Assembly: GCA_041674405.1 (NCBI GenBank)
Contig: JBAYVT010000007.1
Coordinates: 1-17,571, forward strand
Direction: 5' to 3'
DNA length: 17,571 nt
Source: Patescibacteria group bacterium
GTDB lineage: Bacteria > Patescibacteriota > UBA1384 > XYA2-FULL-43-10
In this document: positions 2,290 through 17,571 of the stretch, in pieces
Layout: every line of letters begins with the position of its first letter
How positions within the stretch are numbered: the first letter of the stretch is position 1
Translations under genes and position numbers: made by a program
The notes under the pieces: model-generated
The model's input: only the letters and a program-made list of their open reading frames with translations
Database searches by the model: none
Told to the model about the DNA's origin: nothing

Positions 2290-2311
2290 CGCTCCCATTT
2301 TCAAACTAAAA

Positions 2312-2788
2312 TTATATTTCTAAAACATATACAGTTGTTGGTTCTCCCTGGTCGTTTATCGACTCCTCGAGCCGAGACCAGCCCAGCTTTTCGTAGAGTC
2401 TGTGGGTATGTTCTGTGTGTAAATAAATTTTTTTGAATCCAAACTTTTTAGCAATATCTAAAACCCGATTTATTAGTTGTGATGCAATGCCTTGTCCGCG
2501 ATAGTTCTCTTTTACATAAACACCTGCAATCCACGGTGTAAGATCGGGCCGTTTGTCCAGATCATGCTCCCAAAGAGAGGCCGTCCCGACCCAGTCACCA
2601 CCATCAAGGGCGACAAGAATGAAGGGAACTTTGTTGATATTTAGTTTCTTCTGAATGCCCTTTTTCAATTTTTCGAAACCTACATCATCTTTTTCTCTAA
2701 TCCACTCGGCTAACCATATTCTGGCAATTTCGTCGATAAATTTCTGATGTTTGGCCAAAAAATCAATTTTAGTTTCATATTTTTTCAT
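2312..2788 (-). CDS. GNAT-family N-acetyltransferase
   Basis: 158-aa ORF with the acetyl-CoA binding motif A, R-G-Q-G-I-A, in YRGQGIASQLINRVLDIAKKFG. Length is typical for the family. Low-GC, unlike both neighbours. Confidence 0.85.
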   Translation of the reverse strand: MKKYETKIDFLAKHQKFIDEIARIWLAEWIREKDDVGFEKLKKGIQKKLNINKVPFILVALDGGDWVGTASLWEHDLDKRPDLTPWIAGVYVKENYRGQGIASQLINRVLDIAKKFGFKKIYLHTEHTHRLYEKLGWSRLEESINDQGEPTTVYVLEI

Positions 2789-2869
2789 TGCTGTAATTTT
2801 ATTTTAACATTTTTTAGCTTAAGGGTTCTGTTAAATTTGTAACCGGTCTTTTATCCACAATCTTTCCAA

Positions 2870-2897
2870 TTGACAGCATTTTTTATTCATATACAAT
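2870..2897 (+). promoter_or_regulatory. Sigma70-like promoter candidate (TTGACA-16 nt-TACAAT)
   Basis: TTGACA at 2870-2875 and TACAAT at 2892-2897, with a 16-nt AT-rich spacer, about 130 nt upstream of the amidohydrolase ATG. Confidence 0.45.
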
Positions 2898-2965
2898 GAT
2901 AAGGGTTAAAAATGACGAACAGGCAAAAACGCAAAAAAAGGAAGGTGATACTCTCTCGCACAAAG

Positions 2966-2988
2966 TGAGCCTAGGGCTCATTTTTTTT
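2966..2988 (+). terminator. Leader terminator/attenuator hairpin between the promoter and the amidohydrolase start
   Basis: tgagcc (2966-2971), loop tag, ggctca (2975-2980), then eight T (2981-2988). It ends 40 nt before ATG 3029. Confidence 0.5.
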
Positions 2989-3028
2989 ATACCCCAGAAC
3001 GTTAACAATATTATAGGAGGCAAACAAA

Positions 3029-4069: not shown

Positions 4070-4078
4070 CGTGAACCA

Positions 4079-4116
4079 CCATCCCCGCCCATAATGGGCG
4101 GGGATGGAGTCGTTTT
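4079..4116 (+). terminator. Intrinsic terminator (12-bp perfect GC-rich stem)
   Basis: ccatccccgccc (4079-4090), loop ataat, gggcggggatgg (4096-4107), then agtcgtttt. It starts 10 nt after the amidohydrolase stop. Confidence 0.7.
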
Positions 4117-4159
4117 AAAGAACTATTTTTCTAGAAGATAAAAATCCACATCGAGATCT

Positions 4160-5080
4160 TCAAATTTCTTCTTCAAATATTTTGAAAGAGGGGGAATATG
4201 GCACCGCTTTCAAGCCTTGTTCGCGAAGAATTATTGCCGGGTGCGAACAAATGCCGTATTTGACATAAACCAGGTTCTTGTGTTCCTTAATTTTGTTAAT
4301 TATCCGAAAAAATTCAGTCTCATCATCGCCTCGGGCCAGAGTGGTCAAAAGCAAAATATCCTGTTTGCCATTCCAGCTTCTAAGATCAGCAAAAGATTCG
4401 ACCTCAAACAAATTATGTTTATCGGAATCAAAATTAAAATTAGAAAAATGGCAGGTCTTTTTGAATTCCATTATTGTAAAATTTCCATCAGGCATTATGA
4501 AAAATTCATACAAAATGTCATCATCCCAGTCAAATTTTTTAATCTTTTGCCACAAATTTTTGATGTCGGCAATCAAATCCTCCGGATTATTCCGAACAAT
4601 TCTTTTTTCAAGGACGCTCCCATTCTCAAAAAGGCAAGTTTTTGGTGCTACCGAAATTTGCATCTTTGCTTTACTGCCGCTTATGATCACATTGTCGCAG
4701 CTTTTTGCCGACTCCGATTCCCAGACGCCATTGATTATGCTCATATAGTATATACCGCTGTTCTTAACAAAAGTGCCGCTGTATTTGGCGGTGACGAATC
4801 CTTGAACTATCGCCACGAGCTTGGGGGTGATTTTTTCTGAGATAAATTGATAAATTTCTTCGAAAGATTTGATTATCACACTTCTCGGAAGGTTTATCGT
4901 CCTATTTGCAGAAGAAAATCGGACTCCCATTCTGTCGCCATTAGTAAAGCCGGCATCCAGTAGTTCAGCAAATAATTTGTCTTTAGGGGGCAAATTCCGC
5001 AAAATCAAAAGATTCTGCTTAAACAGCCCCTTTTTCTTAAGCTCGGTTAGTGATTCGGCTTTTTGCCCAAGTTTCTTCAT
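4160..5080 (-). CDS. Small PEP-utilising-enzyme-like protein (PPDK/PEP-synthase N-terminal ATP-grasp-like region plus phosphohistidine swivel motif)
   Basis: 306-aa ORF. The N-terminus KKLGQKAESLTELKKKGL resembles the GGKAANLGEL opening of PEP/pyruvate-binding domains. The C-terminus YGICSHPAIILREQGLKAVP resembles the G-x-T-S-H-x-A-I-x-x-R-E-x-G-I-P-A-V mobile-domain motif with the catalytic His. Confidence 0.55.
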   Translation of the reverse strand: MKKLGQKAESLTELKKKGLFKQNLLILRNLPPKDKLFAELLDAGFTNGDRMGVRFSSANRTINLPRSVIIKSFEEIYQFISEKITPKLVAIVQGFVTAKYSGTFVKNSGIYYMSIINGVWESESAKSCDNVIISGSKAKMQISVAPKTCLFENGSVLEKRIVRNNPEDLIADIKNLWQKIKKFDWDDDILYEFFIMPDGNFTIMEFKKTCHFSNFNFDSDKHNLFEVESFADLRSWNGKQDILLLTTLARGDDETEFFRIINKIKEHKNLVYVKYGICSHPAIILREQGLKAVPYSPSFKIFEEEI

Positions 5081-5118
5081 AATCTATTTTCCCAACAGAC
5101 GATTAACATATTTTTTAT

Positions 5119-5562
5119 TTATTCTGCATAGTTTGGGTATTTGGGGTCGGTAAGATCGTCGATTATTTCTACCGGCTCGATAGTGCCTTGCCAAAAATTG
5201 ATTCCGAGCTCTGCAGCCCCTCGTTCACAAACTTTGATATAGCTGGCATATACCGGGAGTTGGGCGCTCTTCTTTTCAGGCCAAATGAAAGCGAAGCAAT
5301 CATTAGCGACCTCAACAAGATCGGAGCCAGATTCACGAGAAATCAAATCGTCCAGTTCACTATCATTGACTTTGAAATAAGCTACCTGAACTTCAGAATC
5401 AGGATTTTTTCGCATGTTTAAATAAGCCCGATCTTTAAATGGAGCATTAAATATTCGTTCGTATCCCTTAAGATTCAAGGGCGTTAATTTTTTAGTTGTC
5501 GGAATAGTCTTTTGTCGGCTCTTGCTATCGAGCAGCGAACCATAAGCTATAATTTTTTTCAT
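5119..5562 (-). CDS. Gamma-glutamylcyclotransferase-like (AIG2/ChaC fold) protein
   Basis: 147-aa ORF. N-terminal KIIAYGSLL matches the YGSL/YGTL signature, and GYERIFN and VAYFKV segments follow in ChaC-like order. GAAGGAG Shine-Dalgarno upstream (reverse complement of 5567-5573). Confidence 0.5.
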   Translation of the reverse strand: MKKIIAYGSLLDSKSRQKTIPTTKKLTPLNLKGYERIFNAPFKDRAYLNMRKNPDSEVQVAYFKVNDSELDDLISRESGSDLVEVANDCFAFIWPEKKSAQLPVYASYIKVCERGAAELGINFWQGTIEPVEIIDDLTDPKYPNYAE

Positions 5563-5583
5563 TTGGCTCCTTCGATGAGCTAA

Positions 5584-5823
5584 TCATTTCTCTAATACAT
5601 AAAAATCCGCATCGAGATCTTCGAATTTTTCGCGAAACCATTTGCGCGCGTCGGAAACTCCGCGATTGTAGAATGCCGGTCCGGCCTTTTTCAGAATGAA
5701 ATCCAGAACTATTTCTGCTCTCAGGTCGCCAAGATCCTCTTCAAATTCTTTTCTAAAAAAATCTTTGATCTCGCCGATCAATATTTTTTTATCATCTTCG
5801 TTTAGTTCAATTTCCTTTTTCAT
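5584..5823 (-). CDS. DUF2164 family protein
   Basis: 79-aa ORF. EEDLGDLRAEIVLDFILKKAGPAFYNRGVSDA...DLDADFYVLEK follows the DUF2164 pattern as I recall it: acidic stretch, LLDFF, G-x-x-x-YN-x-G, C-terminal L-E-x-Y-x-LE. Confidence 0.75.
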   Translation of the reverse strand: MKKEIELNEDDKKILIGEIKDFFRKEFEEDLGDLRAEIVLDFILKKAGPAFYNRGVSDARKWFREKFEDLDADFYVLEK

Positions 5824-5832
5824 AAATGCGGC

Positions 5833-6336
5833 TCATTTTTTAATAAATTTTTTCATATTCTTTACAAAAACCGGCATAGAGCCATATATTTCATGGACCA
5901 TATTACGCAGAACCGAATCACACTCTTTCGAATCGGGTGGAGGAATATGAAAAGATATCTTTTTGCCAGAAACAATTTCGCTAAACATCGGAACCTTGAT
6001 ACCAAAGTGCTCACATATCCAATCCTGATGATATTCTGCCATCGCCACGATCAGATCAGAATCATCAATTATTTTCTGGGTTAATTGAGTTCTTTTGTGC
6101 CCCGAAACATCAATTCCGATTTTTTTTAGTTCATCAAAGTGGGCAAAGTTATACCCGCTTGTATCAGTGCTCGTGTCTGTACCGGCAGAAGTAATATTGA
6201 GATTGGTAATGTTGTTTTTCTTTGAATATTCTTTTAAACAATATTCGGCCATCAAGCTGCGTGCGATATTATCCGAACAAACAAAACAGACGCTAGTTTT
6301 TCTAATTCCGGTTTTGGATTCAATTTCTTTTTTCAT
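5833..6336 (-). CDS. Low-molecular-weight protein phosphatase / arsenate-reductase-fold protein
   Basis: 167-aa ORF with an N-terminal C-X5-R-S P-loop (VCFVCSDNIARS). Its start overlaps the upstream gene stop by 4 nt (ATGA). Confidence 0.75.
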   Translation of the reverse strand: MKKEIESKTGIRKTSVCFVCSDNIARSLMAEYCLKEYSKKNNITNLNITSAGTDTSTDTSGYNFAHFDELKKIGIDVSGHKRTQLTQKIIDDSDLIVAMAEYHQDWICEHFGIKVPMFSEIVSGKKISFHIPPPDSKECDSVLRNMVHEIYGSMPVFVKNMKKFIKK

Positions 6337-6821
6337 TTTTTAAGGACTTTCAGAATAATTTTGGCGGTTTCTTCCGGAGCTTGCGATGAGTTGTCTATAA
6401 TGGTGGTTTTGAATCCGGGATTATTGATACCGATATCATAGTGATGCTTGACGCGTTTTGCTTCCCATTCATCAAGTTCGCGCGCGCCGCGGTTATTTGC
6501 TGCGATGTCAAGCTTCGGGTTTAGTGTAAAGGCGTGAATATCTTTCTTGTCGATGTCAATATTGGAAACTAGAAAATCGTAATTTTCCTTTGAAAGCGGG
6601 TAGTTGATTATAGTATTCAAACCTGTTTTTAGAAAATTATTGGCGACATCGGCAGCATTTTTGAGATTTAGTTTAATCAATTCATCACTGAGCGGGATAA
6701 AGGGTACAAAACTTCGCAGCTTATCGATTTCAATAGAAGCTGTATTTGGGAGTTCTTTTGCCAAAATTTCCGCTATGGTAGACTTTCCCGAATTGATTGA
6801 TCCGCTAATTACTATTAACAT
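6333..6821 (-). CDS. Small P-loop NTPase/kinase (AAA_33 / chloramphenicol-phosphotransferase-like size and layout)
   Basis: 162-aa ORF with Walker A at residues 6-14 (GSINSGKST). AAGGAGG Shine-Dalgarno immediately upstream (reverse complement of 6826-6832). Confidence 0.7.
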   Translation of the reverse strand: MLIVISGSINSGKSTIAEILAKELPNTASIEIDKLRSFVPFIPLSDELIKLNLKNAADVANNFLKTGLNTIINYPLSKENYDFLVSNIDIDKKDIHAFTLNPKLDIAANNRGARELDEWEAKRVKHHYDIGINNPGFKTTIIDNSSQAPEETAKIILKVLKK

Positions 6822-6871
6822 TTCTCCTCCTTGTACCCTAAGTATAACAAAAATATATTCGAAATATTATT

Positions 6872-8161
6872 TTATTGAGATACTGCTCCGCCAGCTCTTT
6901 TAACATGAGTCCATTCACATCCACCAACACCGGTTCTGTGTTCGCGCAAGAGTTTTGGAATGCTATAAAATCCTTTAATTGTTGCGATATATTCGACACA
7001 AGAAAGTATATACATCAAGAGATATGCAATCGGAACCATGACAGCAAATTTTGTTCTTTCATATATACTATATCCTTGCGTTGCTCCACTCGTGAGAATA
7101 ACGGTATAAAAACAAAAAGTAAGGACTGAGCCTGCAATTGTAGTAAAATCTCCGTTTACGAAGATTAAATAAAGAATATATCCAATCATAAGTGGCTCGA
7201 TAGCAGAAATTATTTCGGAAAATAAAGCATATGGCAGATAAAACCATGAAAGCAACTTTCCAAGTTTTCGATCTTTTGAAAAGAAAAGATCGCGCCTTTT
7301 CAAAAACGCCTGGTAACGGCCATATTTCCAGCGGTTTCGTTGTTTCAGAAGCTCGGGGATGCTGGCAACCGACTCAGAGAAAACTACCATCGACGGATCG
7401 TAGCCGATAAATTTCTTGTCTTTGTAGTGCAATATCATTTTCATCGATAGGTCGATATCCTCGGTGATCGTATCGGTATCATAACCGTTTAAAGTACGCA
7501 GTATTCTCATTCTGTACATAGAACCGACTCCTCCAACAATATATTGTATGCGGGTCATCGCTTCGGCTTTCTTCATCTGGTGATTTAGCATATACTCAAT
7601 TCTCTGGAGGAGATTGAGCATGCCTTTTCCGGGAATGATTTTTACATTGGATGCGAGAGCACCAACCCTCTTTTCGCGAAAAAATTCAACGGCTATTTTC
7701 AGCGCGTCCTTTGTTAGTACCGAGTCGGCATCAAGACACATAAAGAGCGAGCCCTTGGCGAATCTCAAGCCTTTATTCATTGCTTTCGCCTTGCCGCGGA
7801 CATTAACATTAAGAACCTTAATTTTTTTGAGTTTTCCTCTAAATTTGCGCTGGAAGAGAAGAGCAATATTTTTTGTTCTATCATCACTGGAATCATTTAC
7901 GATAATTAACTCAACATTTTTGTATGAACTTTTCACAATACTCACAAGATTGCGATACAGGGCAACTTCCTCATTGTGTGCAGGAACGATAATGGTAATA
8001 AGTGGGTGATAATGATGAGAATAATATCGTTGATTCTCGTCCGCATCATCTTTTCGCCCGATGGTTTTGATGTCGTATAGATCACTAGCAACAGAGAAAA
8101 ATGTCAACCGTACAAGATTGATAAAACTGAGCATTAGAACCAAATAAGCTATAAAAAGCAT
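6872..8161 (-). CDS. Family-2 glycosyltransferase, membrane-integrated processive type (PgaC/NodC/cellulose-synthase-like)
   Basis: 429-aa ORF. It has an N-terminal TM helix, IIVPAHNEE, VNDSSDD, a DAD motif (CLDADS), TED, and the Q-R-x-R-W motif (QRNRWKYG). Several C-terminal hydrophobic helices follow. Confidence 0.85.
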   Translation of the reverse strand: MLFIAYLVLMLSFINLVRLTFFSVASDLYDIKTIGRKDDADENQRYYSHHYHPLITIIVPAHNEEVALYRNLVSIVKSSYKNVELIIVNDSSDDRTKNIALLFQRKFRGKLKKIKVLNVNVRGKAKAMNKGLRFAKGSLFMCLDADSVLTKDALKIAVEFFREKRVGALASNVKIIPGKGMLNLLQRIEYMLNHQMKKAEAMTRIQYIVGGVGSMYRMRILRTLNGYDTDTITEDIDLSMKMILHYKDKKFIGYDPSMVVFSESVASIPELLKQRNRWKYGRYQAFLKRRDLFFSKDRKLGKLLSWFYLPYALFSEIISAIEPLMIGYILYLIFVNGDFTTIAGSVLTFCFYTVILTSGATQGYSIYERTKFAVMVPIAYLLMYILSCVEYIATIKGFYSIPKLLREHRTGVGGCEWTHVKRAGGAVSQ

Positions 8162-8166
8162 TGGAT

Positions 8167-8352
8167 TTATTGCTTAGCAGATTGCTTTTTTGCAAGATAG
8201 ATTTTGTAAAGCCGGATGCCCAAAATGATCAATGCGGCTAAAATCGCGGCTAAAATGATACCTTTAAAAAGCAGGTTGGTTGTGAAAAAGGAGCCGGCTG
8301 CAGCTGCAGTGGAGGCACCCAAAACACTTTTACTTGTAGAATCGCCTGACAT
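8167..8352 (-). CDS. Small single-pass membrane protein (first gene of the minus-strand cluster)
   Basis: 61-aa ORF with an AGGAGA Shine-Dalgarno 6 nt upstream. It has the hydrophobic helix GIILAAILAALIILGI and a basic C-terminus. Its stop is 5 nt before the GT2 start. Confidence 0.6.
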   Translation of the reverse strand: MSGDSTSKSVLGASTAAAAGSFFTTNLLFKGIILAAILAALIILGIRLYKIYLAKKQSAKQ

Positions 8353-8541
8353 TTGATTCTCCTGATGGTTAATTAGTTATAACGCTTAGTCATAACACAA
8401 AACCACAAAAATAGCAATAGCTGAGCAGAGATTATCAAAATTTCAGCCGGGTGTGGAGAAAATGATATTTAAATCGGAGAAAATTTGTGCTTTAAAATGG
8501 TTGTGGTGCTTTGGAAATTAGCATCATTTTATAATACCTAA

Positions 8542-8672
8542 ACCCCTCGGGGCATGGTGAAAACACGTAAGCGATAAAGACGGTCTTCTGTCTGGTATGC
8601 TTACGTGTCTCCGCTCGAAAGGGCGGATGGGCACTCGCAAGAGTGCCGCCAGCGGGAGACCATTTTTATTTT
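8542..8672 (+). ncRNA. Structured RNA leader or small RNA: long hairpin plus two tandem GNRA-capped hairpins, ending in a U-tract
   Basis: A perfect TATAAT at 8530-8535 lies just upstream. Hairpins: acacgtaagc (8563-8572) / gcttacgtgt (8599-8608); ccgctc-GAAA-gggcgg (8611-8626, includes a U.G pair); ggcactc-GCAA-gagtgcc (8630-8647). An alternative outer helix is gtctcc (8607-8612) / ggagac (8655-8660), followed by tttttatttt (8663-8672). The GNRA loops and the wobble pair only make sense on the plus strand. Confidence 0.45.
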
Positions 8673-8694
8673 GTCTAATTTTGGAGGGAACAAG

Positions 8695-8955
8695 ATGAGC
8701 GATGAACAGCAGGTTGTGAAAGTTGTTTGTGCTGATTGTGGGAAAGTAGTGCTTGAGATGAATAAGCTGAGTGAGTGCTTGAACCATTTCTGCCATGTGA
8801 ATAATATAATTGCGCCAGCGAAATACACGGGAGAGAATCTCCCTGATTTCTTAGAGTGCGACTGCAAAAATGTGCTCGGAGTCTTGGCTGCAGATCCCCA
8901 GTCTGTCCCAGCCTACTATCTGATAGCGGGGAAATATCGGTTAGCTACGAGGTGA
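8695..8955 (+). CDS. Small Cys/His-rich (zinc-ribbon-like) protein, function unknown
   Basis: 86 aa from ATG 8695. GGAGG at 8683-8687 lies 7 nt upstream. I do not use the track's GTG 8605 start because it lies inside the RNA structure. Motifs: CADCGK...CLNHFCH...ECDC. Confidence 0.6.
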   Translation: MSDEQQVVKVVCADCGKVVLEMNKLSECLNHFCHVNNIIAPAKYTGENLPDFLECDCKNVLGVLAADPQSVPAYYLIAGKYRLATR

Positions 8956-9094
8956 GGCTCAATAATAGAAATCAAGAAAGGTTCAAGTCTATGCTCAAAG
9001 AATCGAGACATTGGATACAGATTCTTACTTCGAGTATGGAAAAAATAAATTTGCTTTAGAGTTAGCAACTCCCAAGTGAGGTAGTGCTGAATCC

Positions 9095-9122
9095 TTTACT
9101 AAAAAGATGCTGTATGTATAAT
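9095..9122 (+). promoter_or_regulatory. Promoter candidate for the DUF4145 gene (TTTACT-16 nt-TATAAT)
   Basis: TTTACT at 9095-9100 and TATAAT at 9117-9122, 36 nt upstream of ATG 9158. Confidence 0.4.
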
Positions 9123-9157
9123 TGAATCATAAATCATAAAATAGTTAAGGTAAAATA

Positions 9158-9904
9158 ATGACCGACCAATCAGAATTAGATAATAGATATTTTATAGATA
9201 ATTATAAATACAATTGCCCTTTTTGCAATCGAAGGTCTGTCACTTATAGCGTTGTAAGTCAAAGCCAAATAAACTGGTCTGATGATAAAGTTGCACATGT
9301 GTACAGAGTAAATTGCGGTGGTTGTCAAAAAGTCTCAATCCATTTTAGTTATTACAATTTCAGAGTTAACTATAGTAGTTTCAACATTCCCGAAGACGAA
9401 AATGGGGAAACAGTTGATGGTTTTAACTTTTCTGACTTGGATAAATATTTTTTTTATCATAACCCAACTTCGTTCTTTACCGTAAACCCTCTCATCCCTA
9501 AAACGGTTAGGGAGTTGGTTTCGGAAGCTGAGGGTTGTAAAAAAATGAACTTCTTAGTGGGTGCTTCCGGTTCACTTCGAAAGGCAATCTACGAATTTCT
9601 AAAACTACAGAAAGCACAAGGAGATAATTATCAAGAAAAAATTAAATGGCTGAAGAAGAAATATCCGGTCATAGATCCAGTTTTATTTGACACTCTCGGA
9701 AATATTCAGGACATGACAAGCGAAAATATGCACGAAAAAGAGGGTTCGTGGGAACCATGGAAGAATAAAGACCTAGAGTTCTTGATAATGTTAGTCCGTC
9801 TAGTTTTAGACGAGGTGTATGTAATACCTTTGAAAAGAAAATCTGCCTTGGACAAGCTGAATCAATTGAAATCAAAATCAGAGCTGAGTAAGCGACTTAA
9901 TTAA
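9158..9904 (+). CDS. N-terminal zinc-ribbon fused to a DUF4145 domain
   Basis: 248-aa ORF. The N-terminus has CPFCNRR...CGGCQK (a 4-Cys ribbon). The C-terminal half, IPKTVRELVSEAEGC...GASGSLRKAIYEFL...LGNIQDMTSENMH...LEFLIMLVRLVLDEVYV, follows the DUF4145 helical pattern as I recall it. Confidence 0.7.
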   Translation: MTDQSELDNRYFIDNYKYNCPFCNRRSVTYSVVSQSQINWSDDKVAHVYRVNCGGCQKVSIHFSYYNFRVNYSSFNIPEDENGETVDGFNFSDLDKYFFYHNPTSFFTVNPLIPKTVRELVSEAEGCKKMNFLVGASGSLRKAIYEFLKLQKAQGDNYQEKIKWLKKKYPVIDPVLFDTLGNIQDMTSENMHEKEGSWEPWKNKDLEFLIMLVRLVLDEVYVIPLKRKSALDKLNQLKSKSELSKRLN

Positions 9905-9949
9905 ATTAACACCTTTTCAAGAATCCAAGAGGGGGAAGGACCTTTAATT

Positions 9950-10516
9950 TTAATGTTTCTTCAGGGTTGTAGGTGTTTTGCCCATAGCTTCCATTAAAGT
10001 CGGTGACGGAGAATTGAATTCTATCTCCAGTCCCAGCTCTTTTTTTAGTTCCAATATTCTCGTAAGTAGCTTCACATTTCGGTCCAGGAGTATCTGATCC
10101 TTCTTCTTGAGCGTTTGGCCAAAATTAGTGACAGTAAGATTGTTTATTTTATACAGTTCTCTTGATGCTATTTCATTATTTATCAAAAGGATGAGATGCA
10201 TCGTCAGGGCTAGTTGTCTGAAGGTTTCTTTGCCTGCCAACTCTTTAGGCAAATGCGTCTTTAGGATATCCCAAGTTGAAAAGTAATATGGAGTTAAGGT
10301 CGATAATAAGTGCTTGTCCTCAAGAATGGAGATTTCTTCTTCTAGATGAATGCAGTTAGCAGATAGCATTTCGAGGTTACTAATAATTTCCTCTTTAAAA
10401 GCTTCAAAGATATTCGTGTCTCTTTTGCTCTCTTGCTGGCTTTCTAATCGAAACGTAAGCAATACACCAAAACCTGTTGCCAAAATGCCGGAAATTAAAC
10501 CGAGTAAATATTGCAA
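9950..10516 (-). CDS. Single-pass membrane protein with helical cytoplasmic domain, function unknown
   Basis: 188-aa ORF. The apparent start is TTG, with AAAGGA 6 nt upstream. The N-terminal TM helix is LLGLISGILATGFGVLLTF. It is convergent with the DUF4145 gene across a 45-bp gap. Confidence 0.6.
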   Translation of the reverse strand: MQYLLGLISGILATGFGVLLTFRLESQQESKRDTNIFEAFKEEIISNLEMLSANCIHLEEEISILEDKHLLSTLTPYYFSTWDILKTHLPKELAGKETFRQLALTMHLILLINNEIASRELYKINNLTVTNFGQTLKKKDQILLDRNVKLLTRILELKKELGLEIEFNSPSPTLMEAMGKTPTTLKKH

Positions 10517-10590
10517 TTAGAGTCCTTTCGTGTACTTCTAGAATCTAACCTAACAAACACTCCCGCTCCTTTTAATCCTCTGAAGCACAA

Positions 10591-10640
10591 AATGTGTAAA
10601 AAATACTATGGTGGAGCTTATCACCGAGAATTTACACATT
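10591..10640. repeat. 10-bp perfect inverted repeat in divergent intergenic region
   Basis: aatgtgtaaa (10591-10600) and tttacacatt (10631-10640) with a 30-nt spacer. It lies between the divergent 9950-10516 gene and the DUF4065 operon. Confidence 0.5.
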
Positions 10641-10788
10641 ATACAAACGGAGGCTAGGCGCTGGAAGGAAATAATCTATCCCAAATTCCAGAGGCATCAT
10701 TTGACTTTATAGATGTAATCCCATAGTGTATTAGCACTATTAATAATAAAATGTTGATGCTATGATAGAACCAGGTAACGGAGGGGAT

Positions 10789-11283
10789 ATGTCTAATACA
10801 AAAGAGGTGGGGCAAATGGCTTCTGATGTGGCGAAATATTTTTTGTATCGAGCAAAAGAAGACGGGGATTATATTTCCCCTCTAAGGATTCAAAAGCTGG
10901 TTTACTACGGCTATGTGTGGCCCCTAGTCCTTAATGAAAAGAAGTTATTTTCTGAGCAGTTAGAAGCATGGCCTAATGGCCCAGTTGTACCAAGCCTCTA
11001 TAAAGAGCTGAAATCTTATGTTTCGAGCCCTATAGATGACAAGTACCTTAAAATTAAAACCCCAAAAGAATTTTCTGAGTTCTTGCATCTCAAATTTGAT
11101 GAAGACACGCTTGATGTTCTTGACCAAGTTTATAACCAATATATGACAAAGACACCATTCGAGCTTGTACTCCTAACTCATAATGAGGCGCCCTGGAAAA
11201 AGGCACGAGAACGAATGGATAATGGCGGCACAAATAATATTTTTGATTCAGACATACTCGAGTACTATTCAAAAACAACTTAA
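10789..11283 (+). CDS. DUF4065 (Panacea / SocA-like) antitoxin-type domain protein
   Basis: ISPLRIQKLVYYGYVWPLVLNEKKLFSEQLEAWPNGPVVPSLYKELKSY matches the DUF4065 core: KLQKLLYY..., the AW-x-x-GPV motif, then Y-x-x-(F/L)K. Start chosen at ATG 10789 after GGAGG (10779-10783). The track's ATG 10762 and ATG 10816 remain possible. Confidence 0.8.
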   Translation: MSNTKEVGQMASDVAKYFLYRAKEDGDYISPLRIQKLVYYGYVWPLVLNEKKLFSEQLEAWPNGPVVPSLYKELKSYVSSPIDDKYLKIKTPKEFSEFLHLKFDEDTLDVLDQVYNQYMTKTPFELVLLTHNEAPWKKARERMDNGGTNNIFDSDILEYYSKTT

Positions 11284-11285
11284 AA

Positions 11286-11699
11286 ATGGCCTCAAAAAAG
11301 AAAAGCGTAGCAGTAGTACCTGAACCTAATTTTGGGAATGAAAAACTCAAAATTAGTTTTGAGTATTATGATTCAGCATCATCGAAATATTGTTTGTCTA
11401 AATTTGAAAAAGATCAGGTCAGAGAAGCGCTTCTGAGACTCAGAGATATTAATGGCAAATCTTATATGGAACTTTATCGACAGAGAGACCATTATCATTT
11501 TCACCAAGTAAATTGGAAAGATACAGAAGAAAAAAATGGCTTCCCTCCTTGTGGAGTCAATGAATTTGATCCATTCCAGATAGCTCTTCACAATGTGAAT
11601 GAGTGGAAGGTAAGGGTCTTTGGGGGAATCCACAAAGGGACATTCTATATCGTATGGTTTGATCTTGAACACGAGATAGACCCTTCGATGAGAAGGTAA
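11286..11699 (+). CDS. Hypothetical protein, candidate toxin partner of the DUF4065 protein
   Basis: 137-aa ORF whose ATG lies 2 nt after the upstream stop, so it is probably translationally coupled. No TM segment. The C-terminus WKVRVFGGIHKGTFYIVWFDLEHEI is a beta-hairpin-like pattern faintly reminiscent of RelE/ParE-fold toxins; this is a weak call. Confidence 0.65.
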   Translation: MASKKKSVAVVPEPNFGNEKLKISFEYYDSASSKYCLSKFEKDQVREALLRLRDINGKSYMELYRQRDHYHFHQVNWKDTEEKNGFPPCGVNEFDPFQIALHNVNEWKVRVFGGIHKGTFYIVWFDLEHEIDPSMRR

Positions 11700-11709
11700 A
11701 ATTATACAG

Positions 11710-12525
11710 ATGGGCAGAAGAGTATATTATCCTCCGATCTATGTATGTTACAGAAAAGGCGATTCGCACTATCTGCTCTTTTGGATTGAGTTCGGAAATG
11801 ACGGGTCTGTTTATGTCTGGTTCTCAGAAAATCACCGGAAACTTTTTCAGGTTCTGGCATCACACGAACAGGAAGAACTGTCTGCAAAAATTTCCCAAAT
11901 TTCCGTAGAAGATAACCCTATTGAAGTCTATAACCCTCACATCTCATACCATTCCAGTGGAAGAGTCCACATCTCTGGATATGACAATCTTCATGACAAA
12001 CCAAAGGAGCATGTAATTGAAGATAGGGCGACGGAAAGTTTCCTTTCGGTCTGTATAAAAAAAATTGGCTTGCCTTTTTGTTCTATAATTAGCCCTGTCA
12101 TGACAGCAGAAAAATGGGCGCAACTTGAAGTTGTGAGCAAGGATGAATTTCTTAAGAAAAAATGGAATTATTCTGCATTGGTTGGAGGTGAAATAAAGAT
12201 AGCTAGCAATAATAACTCGGGAAGAACGCTGATCGCAATTGATTCATCATCTGTCAGCAAAAATCATGCCCTTACCACAGAAATAATTATTCATGGTTCT
12301 GGCCAGTTTGATTTTGACTCAGATCCTAATAAAAAAATAAAAAATATTATTGGTAAGGCTAGTTTCTCTAACGAAAAAGCCCCTGCGAAAATCAGCTTGC
12401 AATTCTCAACAATTCCTTTCAGTAGAAAGAAAGATAAAAGGAACACAAATTACATTTGTTTATATAATAACGATTATCACACCATTGTGCTTATCAAACC
12501 AACCGATCCTTTGCAGAACTCATAA
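11710..12525 (+). CDS. Hypothetical protein (third gene of the DUF4065 operon)
   Basis: 271-aa ORF starting 10 nt after the previous stop. I recognised no motif. It is His-rich near the N-terminus (HISYHSSGRVHISGY). Confidence 0.6.
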   Translation: MGRRVYYPPIYVCYRKGDSHYLLFWIEFGNDGSVYVWFSENHRKLFQVLASHEQEELSAKISQISVEDNPIEVYNPHISYHSSGRVHISGYDNLHDKPKEHVIEDRATESFLSVCIKKIGLPFCSIISPVMTAEKWAQLEVVSKDEFLKKKWNYSALVGGEIKIASNNNSGRTLIAIDSSSVSKNHALTTEIIIHGSGQFDFDSDPNKKIKNIIGKASFSNEKAPAKISLQFSTIPFSRKKDKRNTNYICLYNNDYHTIVLIKPTDPLQNS

Positions 12526-12529
12526 CGAG

Positions 12530-13747
12530 CTATTTCGTGCCATGCCACCTATATGCTCTCCGGAAACCAGCTTTTTCCGCTTGGGCTATTGTAGAACAAT
12601 ATAGCTCTCCCTTATTCACTTCGATTGTTGTGGTATCGTATTGTTGATCAAACGGAAGGTGATAAATCTTTTCTTTGTTTTTTCCGATATTGCATTTAAT
12701 ACAAGGGTATCCGATGTCCATTTTGCAATTTTCTACTAGATCAATATCCAGCTCGTTGGCAAATCTCCGAGCCAAATCAGACAGGCTTGTGCTGGTGTAA
12801 AATACCGCTTTAGGTTTTTTGTCCGGATTGGCGTCTCTGTATTGGAAAAAAGTGCCAAAGAGCTGGAAGATATGTTTTTCATGAATAGTTTTGAAATGAG
12901 ACCAATTTTTGCACTGCACAATCAGACATTCCTTGCCCTTGTGGCAGATCAGGTCACGGCCAAGGTCATCCAACCCTTGAAATATGCCGTGATAATTTAC
13001 GCTGTAACCTTCTTTTTCGTAAAGATAACCTATATAGCGCTCATACATTCTGCCAATAGCCCACTTTGATTTAGGACGCTTCCAATAGCGATCCAGCGCC
13101 ATTTGATTTCTTTCTGCAGAGGAGAGTTTTCGATATTCTTCTTTGGTCAAGAAATTTGATACAGGATCAGCCTTTTCCTTGTCCGTAAATTCTTGCAGAG
13201 CAATGTCCTCGTCTTCAATAATCTCGTCCTTAAAGTCTAACAGAAATGGTGCAATTGATTCGTAATATTCTATTATTGCTTGAGTTTGACGATTTTCAGC
13301 CTCTGCGGTTCTTCTTCTGCGACCCTCTTCCTTGACAACCTCAGCAGCCCGATAGGCTGGATTCCTTTTAGTAACCAGACTATTAACCAAATAATTGTCT
13401 CTAATCTCCTCATACCCGCTAATCACTGAATTCAGTGTTGGAAAGCCGGAGCTTTTTTCAAGTAAAGATTGTTTGTAAACCCCAGCCGAGTGTTCGAATG
13501 TTCGACTTTTGAGATCGAGACGGCTAATTTGTCCTTCAAGCTCGTCCAATTTCTGCTTCTCAACGAATTTATTTTCCTCATAAAAAGTATTGAATGCTAT
13601 TACTGCAACCACAGAAAAAAACCCGGCAAAAACCAAGACCCATCCAATAGAAACATAATCAAATATAACCCATGAGCCAAAAACCAAGGTTATTATTATG
13701 GCCACAGCTAGTGTTGAGAGATAGTTTTTGATGTATTTTTCAATCAA
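12530..13747 (-). CDS. Membrane-anchored Mrr-type (PD-(D/E)xK) restriction-endonuclease-domain protein with a C-terminal nuclease-associated motif
   Basis: 405-aa ORF with a TTG start and AAGGA 6 nt upstream. It has two N-terminal TM helices, a charged coiled-coil region, then an Mrr_cat-like core: YERYIGYLYEKEGYSV...GLDDLGRDLICHKGKECLIVQCKNWS...IHEKHIFQLFG. The C-terminus IKCNIGKNKEKIYHLPFDQQYDTT...GELYCSTIAQAEKAGFRRA matches a module I have seen fused to other bacterial nucleases. Confidence 0.75.
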   Translation of the reverse strand: MIEKYIKNYLSTLAVAIIITLVFGSWVIFDYVSIGWVLVFAGFFSVVAVIAFNTFYEENKFVEKQKLDELEGQISRLDLKSRTFEHSAGVYKQSLLEKSSGFPTLNSVISGYEEIRDNYLVNSLVTKRNPAYRAAEVVKEEGRRRRTAEAENRQTQAIIEYYESIAPFLLDFKDEIIEDEDIALQEFTDKEKADPVSNFLTKEEYRKLSSAERNQMALDRYWKRPKSKWAIGRMYERYIGYLYEKEGYSVNYHGIFQGLDDLGRDLICHKGKECLIVQCKNWSHFKTIHEKHIFQLFGTFFQYRDANPDKKPKAVFYTSTSLSDLARRFANELDIDLVENCKMDIGYPCIKCNIGKNKEKIYHLPFDQQYDTTTIEVNKGELYCSTIAQAEKAGFRRAYRWHGTK

Positions 13748-13837
13748 AACTCATCCTTATAACTTCGATTTCATTATACATCAAACTCTTGGCTATTTCT
13801 CCCAATCAATGATGAAGGCATATTTGTAGCCAATTCG

Positions 13838-14113
13838 CTAAGTATGAGAAATTGCGCTAATTATCACCATTGTAATAATCCATGCTAAGATTAGCCACCA
13901 ACCAATGGCCTTTGTTCTTCGTTCAACATTCTTCGAGAAGGTCTGAATTATTATCATAATTATTGAAACCCAGCTCAAGAAATCGCTTCCGAGTCTAATA
14001 AAATTTCCAACCACGCCCCCAACGATAAATCCAATAATAAGAAGACCGATCCCGATAAGTAGCACAAGATTATAGCTCAGATTCTTACTCTTTTTCGGCT
14101 GTTCTGACTCCAT
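13838..14113 (-). CDS. Small three-pass membrane protein
   Basis: 91 aa from ATG 14113 (MESEQPKK...), preceded by a perfect AAGGAGG with 5-nt spacing. The track's TTG 14131 start actually contains this Shine-Dalgarno sequence. Three hydrophobic segments. Confidence 0.7.
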   Translation of the reverse strand: MESEQPKKSKNLSYNLVLLIGIGLLIIGFIVGGVVGNFIRLGSDFLSWVSIIMIIIQTFSKNVERRTKAIGWWLILAWIITMVIISAISHT

Positions 14114-14133
14114 TATTACCTCCTTTTCCAAAA

Positions 14134-14550
14134 CTAATTGTTTCTTGTATATAGATACCTAGTATTTATCGCTGAACTAATTTTCCCATGAGTTGAATTA
14201 ATTTCCGATTCGCATTTGTCTCCCCCCGGACACTCAATGCCTTCTTTTTTGAGAAGGGACAAAATTTTAGATATTTGTTGATCTAAAAACAAGTGATTAA
14301 TCTTTCCTCCTTCATAGATTTTTTCTAATTCTTCAGCAGGAATTTCATTAACCAGTTTATTCATCTTTCTGTTAAAACGATTCTCTTTTGCAAAAAAATA
14401 GTACAAAAAAGGAGCAGCTATTATTAGGATCGCCCACTCTGAGATATATAGGAACAAAATGTATCCTAATAGTAAAACAACCAGAATTAGTCCGATATAT
14501 TTCACAGTAGGGGCGAAAAACTTTGTAAACCAATGCTCAATTTTATCCAT
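14134..14550 (-). CDS. Two-pass membrane protein with cytoplasmic C-terminal domain (CPGGDKC)
   Basis: 138 aa from ATG 14550 (MDKIEHW...), with GAAGG 8 nt upstream; the track's TTG 14583 start is less likely. Its stop lies 20 nt before the start of the next gene. Confidence 0.65.
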   Translation of the reverse strand: MDKIEHWFTKFFAPTVKYIGLILVVLLLGYILFLYISEWAILIIAAPFLYYFFAKENRFNRKMNKLVNEIPAEELEKIYEGGKINHLFLDQQISKILSLLKKEGIECPGGDKCESEINSTHGKISSAINTRYLYTRNN

Positions 14551-14593
14551 TCGCTTGGCCTTCGTTTTAATAAAAAAGGACAACCACCTAGGT

Positions 14594-14711
14594 TGTCGAG
14601 ACCAGCATCAGGTTTGACCCTAATGTTTGTTGGTGATTGCCCTATTTATAGGGTCAACCACCAAACACAAAAATGTTGGTAGTTTTATTCAAACTAATAC
14701 TGGTCTCGACA
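14594..14711 (-). ncRNA. 118-nt nested inverted-repeat element; candidate 5' leader or small RNA of the membrane-protein/nuclease genes
   Basis: A 12-bp perfect closing repeat, tgtcgagaccag (14594-14605) / ctggtctcgaca (14700-14711). The central hairpin pairs 14630-14644 with 14649-14664 around a 4-nt loop. One position is A.C on the plus strand but G.U on the minus strand. Segment 14650-14659 can instead pair with 14611-14621. Confidence 0.45.
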
Positions 14712-14716
14712 TGATA

Positions 14717-14745
14717 AATATAACAAAAATAGTGCAATACCACAA
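14717..14745 (-). promoter_or_regulatory. Promoter candidate (minus strand TTGTGG-17 nt-TATATT) firing into the 118-nt element
   Basis: The reverse complement of 14740-14745 is TTGTGG and of 14717-14722 is TATATT, with a 17-nt spacer. The predicted start is near 14710, at the first arm of the closing stem. Confidence 0.35.
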
Positions 14746-14766
14746 TGAAATTTATGGGTTGGGGAA

Positions 14767-14819
14767 TTGACCAACTTAATTCATATTTACTTGGTCAAAC
14801 CAGCAAATGCCCATAATAT
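14767..14819 (+). promoter_or_regulatory. Promoter candidate (TTGGTC-17 nt-TAATAT) whose -35 is one arm of an 8-bp palindrome (operator candidate)
   Basis: ttgaccaa (14767-14774) and ttggtcaa (14791-14798) form a perfect inverted repeat with a 16-nt spacer. TTGGTC at 14791-14796 and TAATAT at 14814-14819, upstream of the 14977 gene. Confidence 0.4.
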
Positions 14820-14976
14820 TCCCCCTCCGGCTATTGTGGATGTTATATAAGGGATACTGATGTGTTATTGTGAGTGTTATATAGACGCACGAATGATAGA
14901 AAATGATGTCGTCTATAAAAATATGAATTGTATTGCTATGCTTGAAGTGTACCGTCGCAACCATCATCGATAAAAA

Positions 14977-15618
14977 ATGTCTTCAGAATTAGATGAAATT
15001 ATTAAGAGAATCAATCTAGTATTAAGATCTAAAAAATCCGAGTTCTTTTTTCTTGGTAAAGAGTTGGAAGATAGTCCGACTAAAAGATCAATAATCCATC
15101 AATTATCAGATTTAGGCGTCTTGCATATTGGGCTGGATGAACCATTTTCCTGGAAAGACTTAGACATATCAAAAGTTGATCGATCCGTAAGCAATAGATA
15201 TTCTTCCTTACATGAATCCGAAAAATACAATGAAGCATTCAGGGAAGAACTTGAAAAGCAGATTGACTGGAAAATGACGATATCAATTGATGAAGAAAAA
15301 TTTAGAGAACTGCTTCAATCTGAAAAATTACGCTGGGATGGCGATGATCTCACATTCAAAGACGAAAAAATAAAATTTACAAGAAATAAGCGGCCGTATT
15401 TTTTGCTCAAAACATTATTTTCAAATCCTGATAAATTGTGGGGCTATGATGAAATTGCCGCAGAATGGAGCGAAGAATATAGCAAAAATGATTGGAGCAA
15501 ATATTATCAAGCTGCGTATTCTGCAAATGAATCAATTGCAAAAACAACCAAGATCAAGGATTTTCTGTTAATAACCAGCAAGGATGTCCGAATCAATCCC
15601 CTCCGGCTAGAAAAGTAG
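14977..15618 (+). CDS. Putative DNA-binding regulator with C-terminal winged-helix (OmpR/PhoB-type effector-like) region
   Basis: 213-aa ORF. The C-terminal third, LTFKDEKIKFTRNKRPYFLLKTLFSNPDKLWGYDEIAAEW...DVRINP, resembles the trans_reg_C layout. No clear Shine-Dalgarno sequence. An intrinsic terminator follows. Confidence 0.55.
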   Translation: MSSELDEIIKRINLVLRSKKSEFFFLGKELEDSPTKRSIIHQLSDLGVLHIGLDEPFSWKDLDISKVDRSVSNRYSSLHESEKYNEAFREELEKQIDWKMTISIDEEKFRELLQSEKLRWDGDDLTFKDEKIKFTRNKRPYFLLKTLFSNPDKLWGYDEIAAEWSEEYSKNDWSKYYQAAYSANESIAKTTKIKDFLLITSKDVRINPLRLEK

Positions 15619-15650
15619 TTTACAAACATTTACAAACCTCTCAAGTGATA

Positions 15651-15680
15651 ACCTGAATTCAAACTTAATTCAGGTTTTTT
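15651..15680 (+). terminator. Intrinsic terminator
   Basis: acctgaatt (15651-15659), 7-nt loop, aattcaggt (15667-15675), running into tttttt (15675-15680). It starts 33 nt after the stop at 15618. Confidence 0.75.
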
Positions 15681-15874
15681 ATGTCAAAGGTCGGAGAACC
15701 AAAGAAGAAAATATCGAAAGAAATATTAGCCAATGAAAATATCGCATGGGCAAGATTTTTGTACAAGCAATATAAGAAAAAGAAGCTGAAGCAGTCTTTA
15801 TCTTTTGACGAAAAAAGTATAGGATAGAAGTGGACAAAATACTACGACACAACTTAAATTTTGAAGACGCAAAT

Positions 15875-15930
15875 GGCAGTCTCTTATTTCCGTGTCGTAG
15901 CGGATTGTCCAGAGACTGCCTTTTGTGTTG
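15875..15930 (+). terminator. 10-bp perfect hairpin plus T-tract immediately upstream of the recombinase RBS (attenuator or insulator candidate)
   Basis: ggcagtctct (15875-15884) / agagactgcc (15911-15920), then ttttgtgtt. AGGAGG at 15932-15937 and ATG at 15945. Confidence 0.4.
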
Positions 15931-15944
15931 TAGGAGGAATAAAA

Positions 15945-17522
15945 ATGAGTGCTAAATCAATCGCTCTCTGCCGGGTGTCAACACCAGAACAGAGAATTGA
16001 GGGCCATAGCCTTGAAAGACAAGAGGCTAGTGTTGTAAAAGCCTCTGAGGAACTTGAATCGCCAATCGTTAAGACTTGGTCACTTGACCAGTCGAGTCGA
16101 GTTGGAAAAAATCTAAACCGCAGAGACCTGAAAGAAATGCTGGACTTTTGCAAACTGAACAAACAAGTTAAGTTTCTAATCATAGACGAAGTTGATCGCT
16201 TTATGAGAGATATCAAGTACTTCTATTATTTTGAAGCTGTATTTGAGCAACAAGGTGTAAAAGTATGGTATGCATCACAGCCAGAACTAAATACAAATGA
16301 CATGATGGGAAAGCTCCAAAAGCTCTTCTTAGTATTTAGAGCAGAAGCCAGTAACGATGAAAGGACTTGCAAATCATTAAAAGGATTAAAGGACCGCATA
16401 GCGAAGGGATATTGGCCATTTCCGCTCCACCAAGGCTACATTAAAGGCTCAGAACCAGGTTTGCATATTCCAGATCCTGAACGATATAATTTGCTCCGAG
16501 AGGCATTCGAAGAGGTTCTAATAAGGCGTTTTACAGTCAATGAAGCTTTGGATCGGCTTAATAATAATGGGTACAAATCTCCAAACGGAAAACCCCTCCG
16601 GATTGATAAATTCAGAGAACTATTAAAAGACCCATATTATGCGGGTGCGCTTAGAGTTGAGTCATGGGATAAAGAATTATGGAATGATAACGGATTACAT
16701 GAGTCTCTGATAACTATGGAAATGTGGGAGGAGCTTCAGCTTGTTGTCAATAATAAAATGCGCAAATTCCAACGAAAACAGCACAATCCAGCGTTTCCAC
16801 TATCAAATCTATTTTATTGTGATGAATGTGATGAGAAAAAAATCGTTGGTTATATCCATAGGAATGGGAAGAGCAATTGGACAGGCGAAGAATATCGTTG
16901 TAGGGGATGCAACAAAGTTATTAAAAAGGACGATCTTCATTCAACGACTGACACTTTTTTCGATAGCATAAAAATGCTTGAAAGTAACACACACGATTTT
17001 AAGAGTGCTTTGCGTGAAGTTTGGGCGGAAGAGCAGAAAGAAGGCTTCAATCGGACTAAACAGCTTAAAATTAGGTTAGAAAACCTGAACACTGAGAAAA
17101 ATAAGCTTGCGGTTGGCATAGTTATGAATCCGGAGCTTAAAGATGATTTGGCTCAATCATTAGAAGAGAAAAAGACTCAAATCAAGAATGTCGAGAAGGA
17201 AATATCGGAAGCAGAGAACATAGAGAGCGATTTCCTCGAGTTTGTGGAGTTTTCGATTGATTACATCAAAGATCTCAAAGCTAACTGGTGGGATCTTGGA
17301 CACGATGAACGGCTAGAGTGTAAACATTTGATAACAAAAGACAAAATTTTTACAAATTTCTCTGAAAAAGTTTACACACCAGAAATTAGTCCTATTTTGA
17401 AGCTAATTTGCAATATAAAAGGGGCAGAAACTGCCCCAAAATCCCAAGTGGTGGAGGTGAGGGGAGTTGCACCCCTGTCCAAAAGGCTTCAAACATATCG
17501 TCTACAAGTTTTGCCTTGGTGA
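15945..17522 (+). CDS. Large serine recombinase (phage-integrase-type)
   Basis: 525 aa from ATG 15945, with AGGAGG 7 nt upstream; the track's TTG 15861 extension is rejected. The resolvase catalytic motif is ALCRVSTPEQ...SLERQ...DEVDRFMR. A recombinase domain (GYWPFPLHQGY), a zinc ribbon (CDECDEK...YRCRGCNK) and a long Glu/Lys-rich coiled coil follow. Confidence 0.9.
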   Translation: MSAKSIALCRVSTPEQRIEGHSLERQEASVVKASEELESPIVKTWSLDQSSRVGKNLNRRDLKEMLDFCKLNKQVKFLIIDEVDRFMRDIKYFYYFEAVFEQQGVKVWYASQPELNTNDMMGKLQKLFLVFRAEASNDERTCKSLKGLKDRIAKGYWPFPLHQGYIKGSEPGLHIPDPERYNLLREAFEEVLIRRFTVNEALDRLNNNGYKSPNGKPLRIDKFRELLKDPYYAGALRVESWDKELWNDNGLHESLITMEMWEELQLVVNNKMRKFQRKQHNPAFPLSNLFYCDECDEKKIVGYIHRNGKSNWTGEEYRCRGCNKVIKKDDLHSTTDTFFDSIKMLESNTHDFKSALREVWAEEQKEGFNRTKQLKIRLENLNTEKNKLAVGIVMNPELKDDLAQSLEEKKTQIKNVEKEISEAENIESDFLEFVEFSIDYIKDLKANWWDLGHDERLECKHLITKDKIFTNFSEKVYTPEISPILKLICNIKGAETAPKSQVVEVRGVAPLSKRLQTYRLQVLPW

Positions 17523-17551
17523 TTTGTTCGAATAATAGCTCAACCAAGGCA
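17512..17551. repeat. 40-bp dyad overlapping the recombinase stop codon (terminator or recombinase-site candidate)
   Basis: tgccttggt (17512-17520) and accaaggca (17543-17551), 9 bp perfect with a 22-nt spacer. No T-tract follows. Confidence 0.5.
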
Positions 17552-17571
17552 GAAAACTATTATCTTATCTC

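Follow-up and report, generated by a model that had tools for sequence, protein, structure and literature searches.

Does a membrane-tethered nuclease encoded on a Patescibacteria contig act together with the two small membrane proteins encoded beside it, or is it a system in its own right? The window, i.e., the whole 17,571-nt stretch analyzed here (GenBank assembly GCA_041674405.1, contig JBAYVT010000007.1, positions 1 to 17,571 of the forward strand), is part of an 18.9-kb metagenomic contig, the products of which NCBI attributes to Patescibacteria metagenome-assembled genome (MAG) proteins. An initial annotation had proposed that three genes between positions 12530 and 14583 form an undescribed membrane-coupled defence module. 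Its description of the genes held: open reading frames (ORFs) and hydropathy agreed on three co-oriented minus-strand genes, on the number of transmembrane (TM) helices in each product and on a cysteine-containing tail in the 2-TM protein. The answer favored by our analysis is nevertheless a different one, namely that the gene of the 405-amino-acid (aa) nuclease (12530..13747, minus strand, TTG start) is the whole functional unit. It would be an autonomous single-gene system, carried as cargo by an integrative mobile element and cutting foreign DNA at the membrane. We give this reading a probability of about 55%; the nuclease family as a whole probably guards against incoming phage DNA.

The 405-aa protein was 100% identical to the NCBI record 'MAG: restriction endonuclease [Patescibacteria group bacterium]'. 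Its proposed build, two N-terminal TM helices joined to an Mrr-like PD-(D/E)xK core, was borne out by hydropathy, AlphaFold2 and Pfam PF04471. The N-terminal anchor (13592..13720, minus strand; hydropathy and AlphaFold2) is made of TM1 (residues 10-28) and TM2 (residues 34-52), with a mean hydropathy of 2.3-2.5 across 19 residues and an acidic linking loop of 5 residues. A variable helical linker, possibly a coiled coil, follows (residues 53-96; 13460..13591, minus strand); it extends the long helix 35-99 of the AlphaFold2 model, and in the alignment it was gap-rich and variable in length. The conserved central helical domain (residues 97-232; 13052..13459, minus strand), delimited by alignment, had no match in Pfam, DUF4041 included. 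In the 32-sequence alignment it carried invariant basic motifs within RRRR (143-146) and WKRPKSKW (222-229), e.g., R145-R146 and W222-x-R224. The Mrr_cat PD-(D/E)xK domain (residues 233-339; 12731..13051, minus strand) matched PF04471 with 36.4 bits against a cut-off of 21 (E=6e-9), and Mrr_cat was also matched by 31 of 32 homologues. The C-terminal nuclease-associated motif noticed earlier corresponded to a putative 'sunset' domain (residues 350-398; 12554..12700, minus strand), which contains the motif IKCN...IYHLPFDQQYD...GFRRA and scored 26.4 bits against the NCBIfam model NF051437, just below the cut-off of 27; almost the whole motif was invariant in the family.

The putative catalytic residues E236, D265, Q278 and K280 were invariant in the alignment, and the DLGRD...VQCK motif was kept in all 32 aligned homologues. 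Since the catalytic residues, much of the central domain and nearly the whole sunset motif do not vary, the enzyme is very probably active. An AlphaFold2 model built on 32 homologues (mean predicted local distance difference test score, pLDDT, 76.6) consisted of a helical hairpin (2-28 and 35-99) whose second arm runs into the long helix, a helical domain (103-223), an alpha/beta core (228-338) and a small beta-rich C-terminal unit. When this model was compared with the PDB in Foldseek, the matches were PD-(D/E)xK domains, with MspJI as the best (1e-4), alongside AF1548, EndoMS/NucS, Hjc, Card1, Cdn1, McrC and Avs3/4. Neither the family profile nor the sunset segment on its own found a relative in sequence searches of the PDB, and nothing relevant was found in the literature under 'sunset domain'. 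The sunset segment by itself (residues 346-400) was also 51% identical to the C-terminal part of 'thermonuclease family' proteins encoded by Microvirga plasmids (NZ_CP016621.1:114941-115102 and NZ_CP069358.1:406062-406223), showing that the domain recurs on unrelated nucleases.

The nuclease belongs to a large family. At E<=1e-3, a homology search gave 5,863 proteins, of which the best 120 were mostly 390-430 aa long, were 49-73% identical and came from Patescibacteria, Omnitrophota, Elusimicrobia, a Methanomassiliicoccales archaeon and others; members were also present on Hymenobacter plasmids and in gut prophages. The central domain alone (residues 95-232) gave 713 clusters at 50% identity. 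Among the matches listed, 45-280 residues precede this domain, and in most of the longer proteins about 175 aa follow it, which is the length of Mrr plus sunset. The constant downstream length behind a variable N-terminus indicates that the conserved unit consists of the central domain, Mrr_cat and the sunset domain.

Is the membrane anchor a property of the family or of this protein? We collected 178 further homologue loci from genomes, metagenomes, IMG/VR and look-ups of specific proteins, which together with the window contig fell into 117 clusters at 90% identity, i.e., 116 non-redundant loci besides the window; the neighborhood statistics rest on the metagenome and IMG/VR loci. Anchors were surveyed in the 113 non-redundant loci with an intact 5' end. 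The nuclease itself carried TM helices in 70 of them, and in another 32 a one-TM Zn_ribbon_Top1 protein was encoded directly upstream. Only 11 loci had neither form, and 5 of these lay within about 210 nt of a contig end. TM helices or a TM partner were thus found in approximately 90% of the loci, even though the TM sequence varied across the family. Membrane association is a conserved trait that has been reached by two genetic solutions.

The second solution defines a sister clade. In many loci the nuclease ORF was devoid of TM helices but was abutted or overlapped by a co-oriented ORF of 97-190 aa. The partner begins with 'ME', followed by a single TM helix, a stretch rich in K/R, a helical region and a topoisomerase-type C4 zinc ribbon with the pattern CPxC...GC..YPxC; 8 of 10 partners tested matched Pfam Zn_ribbon_Top1 (PF01396) with E-values from 1e-7 to 3e-16. 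The nuclease start usually overlaps or closely follows the partner stop in an ATGA-type junction, as in L062 (partner 4519-4971, nuclease ORF 4956-6056), and the second gene encodes a soluble nuclease with central, Mrr and sunset domains. A hidden Markov model (HMM) of the partner found it in 45 loci, 32 of them non-redundant, nearly always directly upstream and on the same strand, with no match in the viral loci nor on the window's contig. The split arrangement accordingly occurred in 32 of 117 non-redundant loci (L001, L002, L035, L041, L042, L062, L066-L069, L080, L092 and others) and in none of the prophage-like ones. Split loci might have been fused genes broken by a frameshift or a recoded stop codon; this was rejected, the upstream ORF being a distinct Zn_ribbon_Top1 protein that usually overlaps or abuts the nuclease start. 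In the three split cases with a 'gap 0', the ATG lay 1-4 nt past the stop codon.

The charge distribution points to the same orientation in both forms. K/R residues lie in the N-terminal tail of the nuclease and the short loop is acidic, so two-TM forms are predicted to have both termini inside, and one-TM partners are predicted to have the N-terminus out and the C-terminus in. From these topologies, the DNA-handling domains of both forms would lie on the cytoplasmic face. The closest distinct homologue, P0002 (L014:5001-6425, 68% identical), has about 65 extra N-terminal residues with a CxxC...CxxC zinc-ribbon-like motif before the TM hairpin; this extension fits a cytoplasmic N-terminus and would add another zinc ribbon to the family.

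The genomic surroundings of the homologues were those of mobile DNA. Among the prophage-like loci (IMG/VR, 43 non-redundant), 22 of 82 nearest neighbors were CI-like repressors, and the same set included integrases and four abortive-infection (Abi) proteins. The IMG/VR homologues (L100-L179) shared 37-53% identity, mostly had one TM helix and also had ImmA-like genes as neighbors. The gene order was repressor, ImmA-like gene, nuclease and integrase in L141 (nuclease 4446-5924) and repressor, nuclease, Abi and integrase in L128 (nuclease 4404-5852), and a CI-like gene overlapped the nuclease start in L169 (nuclease 4803-5954). The lysogeny module is the classic place for prophage exclusion and defence genes. 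A tblastn search against GenBank records of isolated phages gave one weak partial match only; isolated phages being essentially without a homologue, the viral evidence comes from predicted prophage contigs. In the environmental loci, Resolvase and Recombinase were the commonest Pfam families among nearest neighbors, and in 11 of 73 non-redundant loci (15%) a homologue of the window's serine recombinase was encoded no more than 5 kb from the nuclease. PADLOC matches among the environmental neighbors were SoFic, MzaA, reverse transcriptases, a DpnI-like enzyme and Cas1. Four plasmids of cultured Hymenobacter strains carried a one-TM homologue with 44-46% identity. In two of the plasmid loci (L180:4791-5987, NZ_CP141185.1, and L181:3791-4987, NZ_CP010057.1) it is annotated as 'restriction endonuclease' and sits in an arsenic-resistance region; its neighbors there are a DUF4238 protein and a hypothetical protein of 415 aa whose C-terminus is PD-(D/E)xK-like. 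Lysogeny modules, recombinase-borne islands and Abi and DUF4238 neighbors support a context typical of defence genes.

The window agrees with this picture. As the initial annotation had stated, a recombinase is nearby: a large serine recombinase (15861..17522, plus strand) with Pfam Resolvase and Recombinase domains and a PHROG integrase match (E=2e-48), two genes away from the nuclease gene. It is likely the integrase of the mobile element on which the nuclease gene resides.

How might such a protein work? The two-helix hairpin anchors it in the cytoplasmic membrane, and the long helix leads to the conserved basic helical domain, then to the Mrr-type endonuclease and finally to the sunset domain, all soluble parts presumably facing the cytoplasm. 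In this position the enzyme could cut phage or other mobile-element DNA during its entry at the membrane. The tether would hold the nuclease off the chromosome and thereby remove the need for a protective methyltransferase. SNIPE, a membrane-bound nuclease of E. coli, is the demonstrated parallel for this mode of action. The variable N-terminal anchor probably sets the position of the enzyme at the membrane, a task that would fall to the separate one-TM zinc-ribbon protein in the sister clade.

Several points weigh against this reading. No PADLOC defence model matched the nuclease or either of the two small proteins, and the PADLOC matches among neighbors were sparse, each model being listed for 1-2 of 110 neighbors, a count with no control set beside it. 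Some homologues lie amid housekeeping genes, as in L010 (flanked by the Era GTPase gene and purine-synthesis genes). The positive-inside rule is the one basis on which the cytoplasmic orientation is predicted, as basic motifs are for the suggested DNA binding by the central and sunset domains. The 90-bp gap before the nuclease gene holds no terminator, so the gene could still be transcribed together with the small genes. Finally, Mrr-family enzymes are classically modification-dependent, and this dependence could explain self-tolerance without any membrane.

That last point leads to the main rival, a membrane-bound, modification-dependent Type IV restriction enzyme that would spare the host because the modification it targets is missing from host DNA, the anchor being incidental or an aid to access. 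The protein is a member of the Mrr_cat family, modification-dependent MspJI was its best structural match, public records annotate it as 'restriction endonuclease', and no methyltransferase is nearby. However, Pfam found neither an Mrr_N winged helix nor an SRA reader in the window protein, nor were these among the 25 families most matched by 32 homologues. Anchoring in approximately 90% of loci by two genetic solutions also argues that the anchor is essential. We regard a Type IV enzyme as unlikely, though it deserves to be taken seriously.

Tethering at the membrane would also be compatible with the sequestration of a toxic nuclease. An abortive-infection or toxin effector could be held inactive at the membrane and, once released or activated on infection, would destroy host and phage DNA and kill the cell; Abi-family and toxin-antitoxin genes were indeed frequent neighbors. 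However, the neighbor survey found no protease, sensor or antitoxin gene conserved next to the nuclease, and SNIPE, the one mechanistically studied membrane-bound nuclease, defends directly and non-abortively (PMC13190303). An abortive effector is therefore improbable.

The same low standing applies to the proposal from which the analysis set out, in which the three genes form one membrane-coupled defence module with small TM proteins that sense or gate and a tethered nuclease as the effector. The ORFan next to the nuclease gene (13838..14113, minus strand; GGAGG ribosome-binding site and ATG at 14113) encodes a 91-aa protein with three TM helices by hydropathy (16-32, 41-57 and 69-85); it lies outside the conserved unit, and its ORF spans 13838-14131(-), or 97 aa if counted from TTG. 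The second ORFan (14134..14550, minus strand; ATG at 14550) encodes a 138-aa protein with two TM helices by hydropathy (18-34 and 38-54) and a soluble tail with the cysteines of ECPGGDKCE; its ORF spans 14134-14583(-), or 149 aa counted from TTG. The 138-aa and 91-aa forms are those chosen by public gene callers. The gene order itself speaks for a unit: the genes are co-oriented with gaps of 20 and 90 nt and no terminator between them, all three products are membrane proteins by hydropathy, and the sister clade does pair the nuclease with a small TM protein. Given the 20-nt spacing read from the sequence, the 138-aa gene is probably co-transcribed with the 91-aa gene downstream. Upstream of the 138-aa gene, about 30 nt from its ATG, a terminator-like hairpin (GACAACCTAGGTGGTTGTC with a T run after it) is located at 14579-14597(-), in a gene-free 390-bp region that faces a divergent 213-aa gene (14977-15618).

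However, the two small proteins did not recur elsewhere. Each small TM protein had itself as its sole match among 5.8 billion proteins, and in phmmer searches of both against ORFs of at least 35 aa in all loci, they matched the window's own contig only and none of the 178 others. The HMM of the sister-clade partner matched neither of them. Genes analogous to them, defined as co-oriented ORFs of at most 160 aa with at least 2 TM helices that end at most 400 nt upstream of the nuclease, were found in 2 of 99 loci, compared with 5.1% of all crudely called ORFs in these loci, so there was no excess. Relatives at 63-68% identity carried different or divergent upstream genes: a divergent 588-aa gene in P0002 (68% identity) and an unrelated 141-aa gene without a TM helix in P0003 (66% identity). 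The upstream gene was also divergent in P0024, among housekeeping neighbors. Close homologues thus often have a divergent or unrelated gene upstream, indicating that their nuclease is transcribed alone, and nuclease homologues as a group were placed in unrelated neighborhoods. In the window, the 90-bp spacer noted earlier was confirmed at exactly 13748..13837 (minus strand). Within it, a perfect TATAAT (13778-13773) precedes an AAGGA ribosome-binding site (13758-13754), and the TTG start of the nuclease is six nt downstream of the latter; a consensus scan of the spacer found no terminator-like hairpin, no -35 element and no full -35/-10 promoter. An independent promoter for the nuclease gene within the spacer is plausible as a prediction.

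Judged by sequence conservation, then, the trio is not a conserved module, and the small genes are strain-specific ORFans, at most co-transcribed passengers. Across the 178 loci, nuclease homologues showed no conserved linkage to small TM genes, an outcome that the initial annotation itself had named as one that would refute its proposal; the idea of one membrane-coupled unit is accordingly not supported. What stands of the interpretation is a membrane-tethered nuclease with a likely defence role; what does not is a module of three genes.

A role outside defence, serving the element or the cell, for example through nucleotide scavenging from DNA taken up by Patescibacteria or through element transfer, would suit the abundance of the family in Patescibacteria and the copies among housekeeping genes, but it is very improbable. 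Known uptake nucleases such as EndA and NucA face outward, unlike the predicted cytoplasmic orientation here, and the presence of the same family on Hymenobacter plasmids and in the lysogeny modules of prophages from unrelated gut bacteria points to a general, mobile-element-linked function.

The remaining genes of the locus bear on the statement that the trio sits among other defence-like genes, which was weakly supported. The gene of a SocA/Panacea-domain antitoxin (10762-11283) lies 2 nt ahead of that of a 137-aa MAG6450-family protein (11286-11699), and the two are probably a PanA-type toxin-antitoxin pair on the same island as the nuclease; PADLOC, however, gave no significant match for the neighbors. 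Past the recombinase, beyond the right end of the window, lie a 70-aa HTH_3 Cro/CI-like protein and a 241-aa PLDc_2 phospholipase-D-family protein (L009:209-934 and 1146-1358). The latter may be another nuclease, and these genes suggest a larger mobile or defence island. At the other end, positions 1-4100 of the window have a GC content of 50-60%, compared with about 38% in the remainder, with a gradual change between about 2000 and 4500. This part contains long overlapping ORFs on both strands, e.g., 3029-4069(+) and 3402-4031(-), and may have been acquired horizontally or reflect a chimeric assembly.

When compared with known systems, the layout is unlike a classical restriction system, as had been stated at the outset: no methyltransferase or specificity subunit was found among the genes of the window or the contig. 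The Type IV enzymes Mrr and MspJI share with the family the PF04471 domain, the D...QxK motif followed by W, the same fold and the lack of a cognate methyltransferase. However, they are soluble and have an N-terminal reader of modified DNA, whereas the family instead combines a membrane anchor with an unrelated helical domain and a sunset domain. Rst_2TM_1TM_TIR, Zorya and Kiwa also combine membrane-embedded components with an effector, and the split sister clade is a true two-gene membrane system of this kind. No sequence similarity to these systems was found with PADLOC. In the window, TM anchor and nuclease form one protein, and the small TM genes beside it lack conservation. Prophages carry superinfection-exclusion (Sie) genes, among them Sie2009 of lactococcal phages, Ltp of phage TP-J34 and rexAB and sieB of lambda. 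Like the prophage-borne nuclease genes, they lie beside or between repressor and integrase, so that they are expressed in lysogens, and their products, membrane proteins as well, presumably act on DNA that enters the cell. The classical Sie proteins, which are small and have no enzymatic activity, block injection, whereas the protein described here carries a nuclease.

The nearest counterparts are two membrane-bound defence nucleases made of a single protein. Epona, from a Vibrio cholerae superintegron cassette, is an Mrr_cat domain fused to a two-TM holin-like domain that is anti-phage in Escherichia coli, and it has been reported almost only from V. cholerae (bioRxiv 10.1101/2024.07.02.601686). 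By description, which is the level at which the two were compared, both combine two TM helices with Mrr_cat and thus have the same anchor and catalytic family; the holin model PF07332 gave weak matches in 5 of 32 family members. The family described here differs in spanning many phyla. SNIPE (PD-lambda-1) of E. coli, the other membrane-bound single-protein nuclease, cuts phage DNA during injection, and without its TM helix it becomes toxic in a nuclease-dependent manner and breaks the chromosome, showing that the tether prevents autoimmunity (Saxton et al., Nature 2026; PMC13190303). SNIPE homologues have a conserved core behind a variable N-terminus (PMC13190303). The likeness extends to a single protein with a poorly conserved N-terminus bearing 1-2 TM helices, a helical linker, a conserved middle domain of putative DNA binding and a C-terminal nuclease, as well as to the predicted cytoplasmic face, the lack of a methyltransferase and a minority of homologues without a TM helix. 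However, SNIPE has a GIY-YIG nuclease where the family has PD-(D/E)xK Mrr_cat, and the DUF4041 middle domain was matched neither by the window protein (E<=1) nor among the 25 families most matched by 32 homologues. The family also differs in its missing PADLOC match and in its extra C-terminal sunset domain. By domain content, membership in SNIPE fails on DUF4041 and GIY-YIG.

The word 'undescribed' in the initial annotation consequently holds in part. No PADLOC model and no literature were found for the nuclease family, but SNIPE and Epona were already known as membrane-bound defence nucleases made of one protein, and the family is an uncharacterized variant of that type. We tentatively suggest, as a possibility beyond the single-gene reading, that the family arose independently of SNIPE as its widespread counterpart, with a PD-(D/E)xK nuclease as the catalytic part. 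Such a system would destroy invading DNA where it enters and would distinguish self from non-self purely by location. It would act in Patescibacteria and archaea, on Bacteroidota plasmids and in gut prophages, and in a two-gene variant the one-TM zinc-ribbon protein would recruit a soluble nuclease to the membrane. The Hymenobacter-plasmid and gut-prophage homologues make the idea directly testable, and the natural split between anchor and nuclease is a ready-made experiment on the role of the tether. Patescibacteria have, to our knowledge, few recognized defence systems, and the nuclease family may therefore be among their main ones. We know of only one nuclease, SNIPE (2026), for which discrimination of self from non-self by membrane confinement has been demonstrated mechanistically. 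The family is large and highly conserved (>5,800 clusters at 90% identity) and has a SNIPE-like architecture on a different catalytic fold. If it works as SNIPE does, membrane confinement would be a convergent and common solution, and spatial confinement would be a general principle of defence that has evolved more than once on different catalytic folds.

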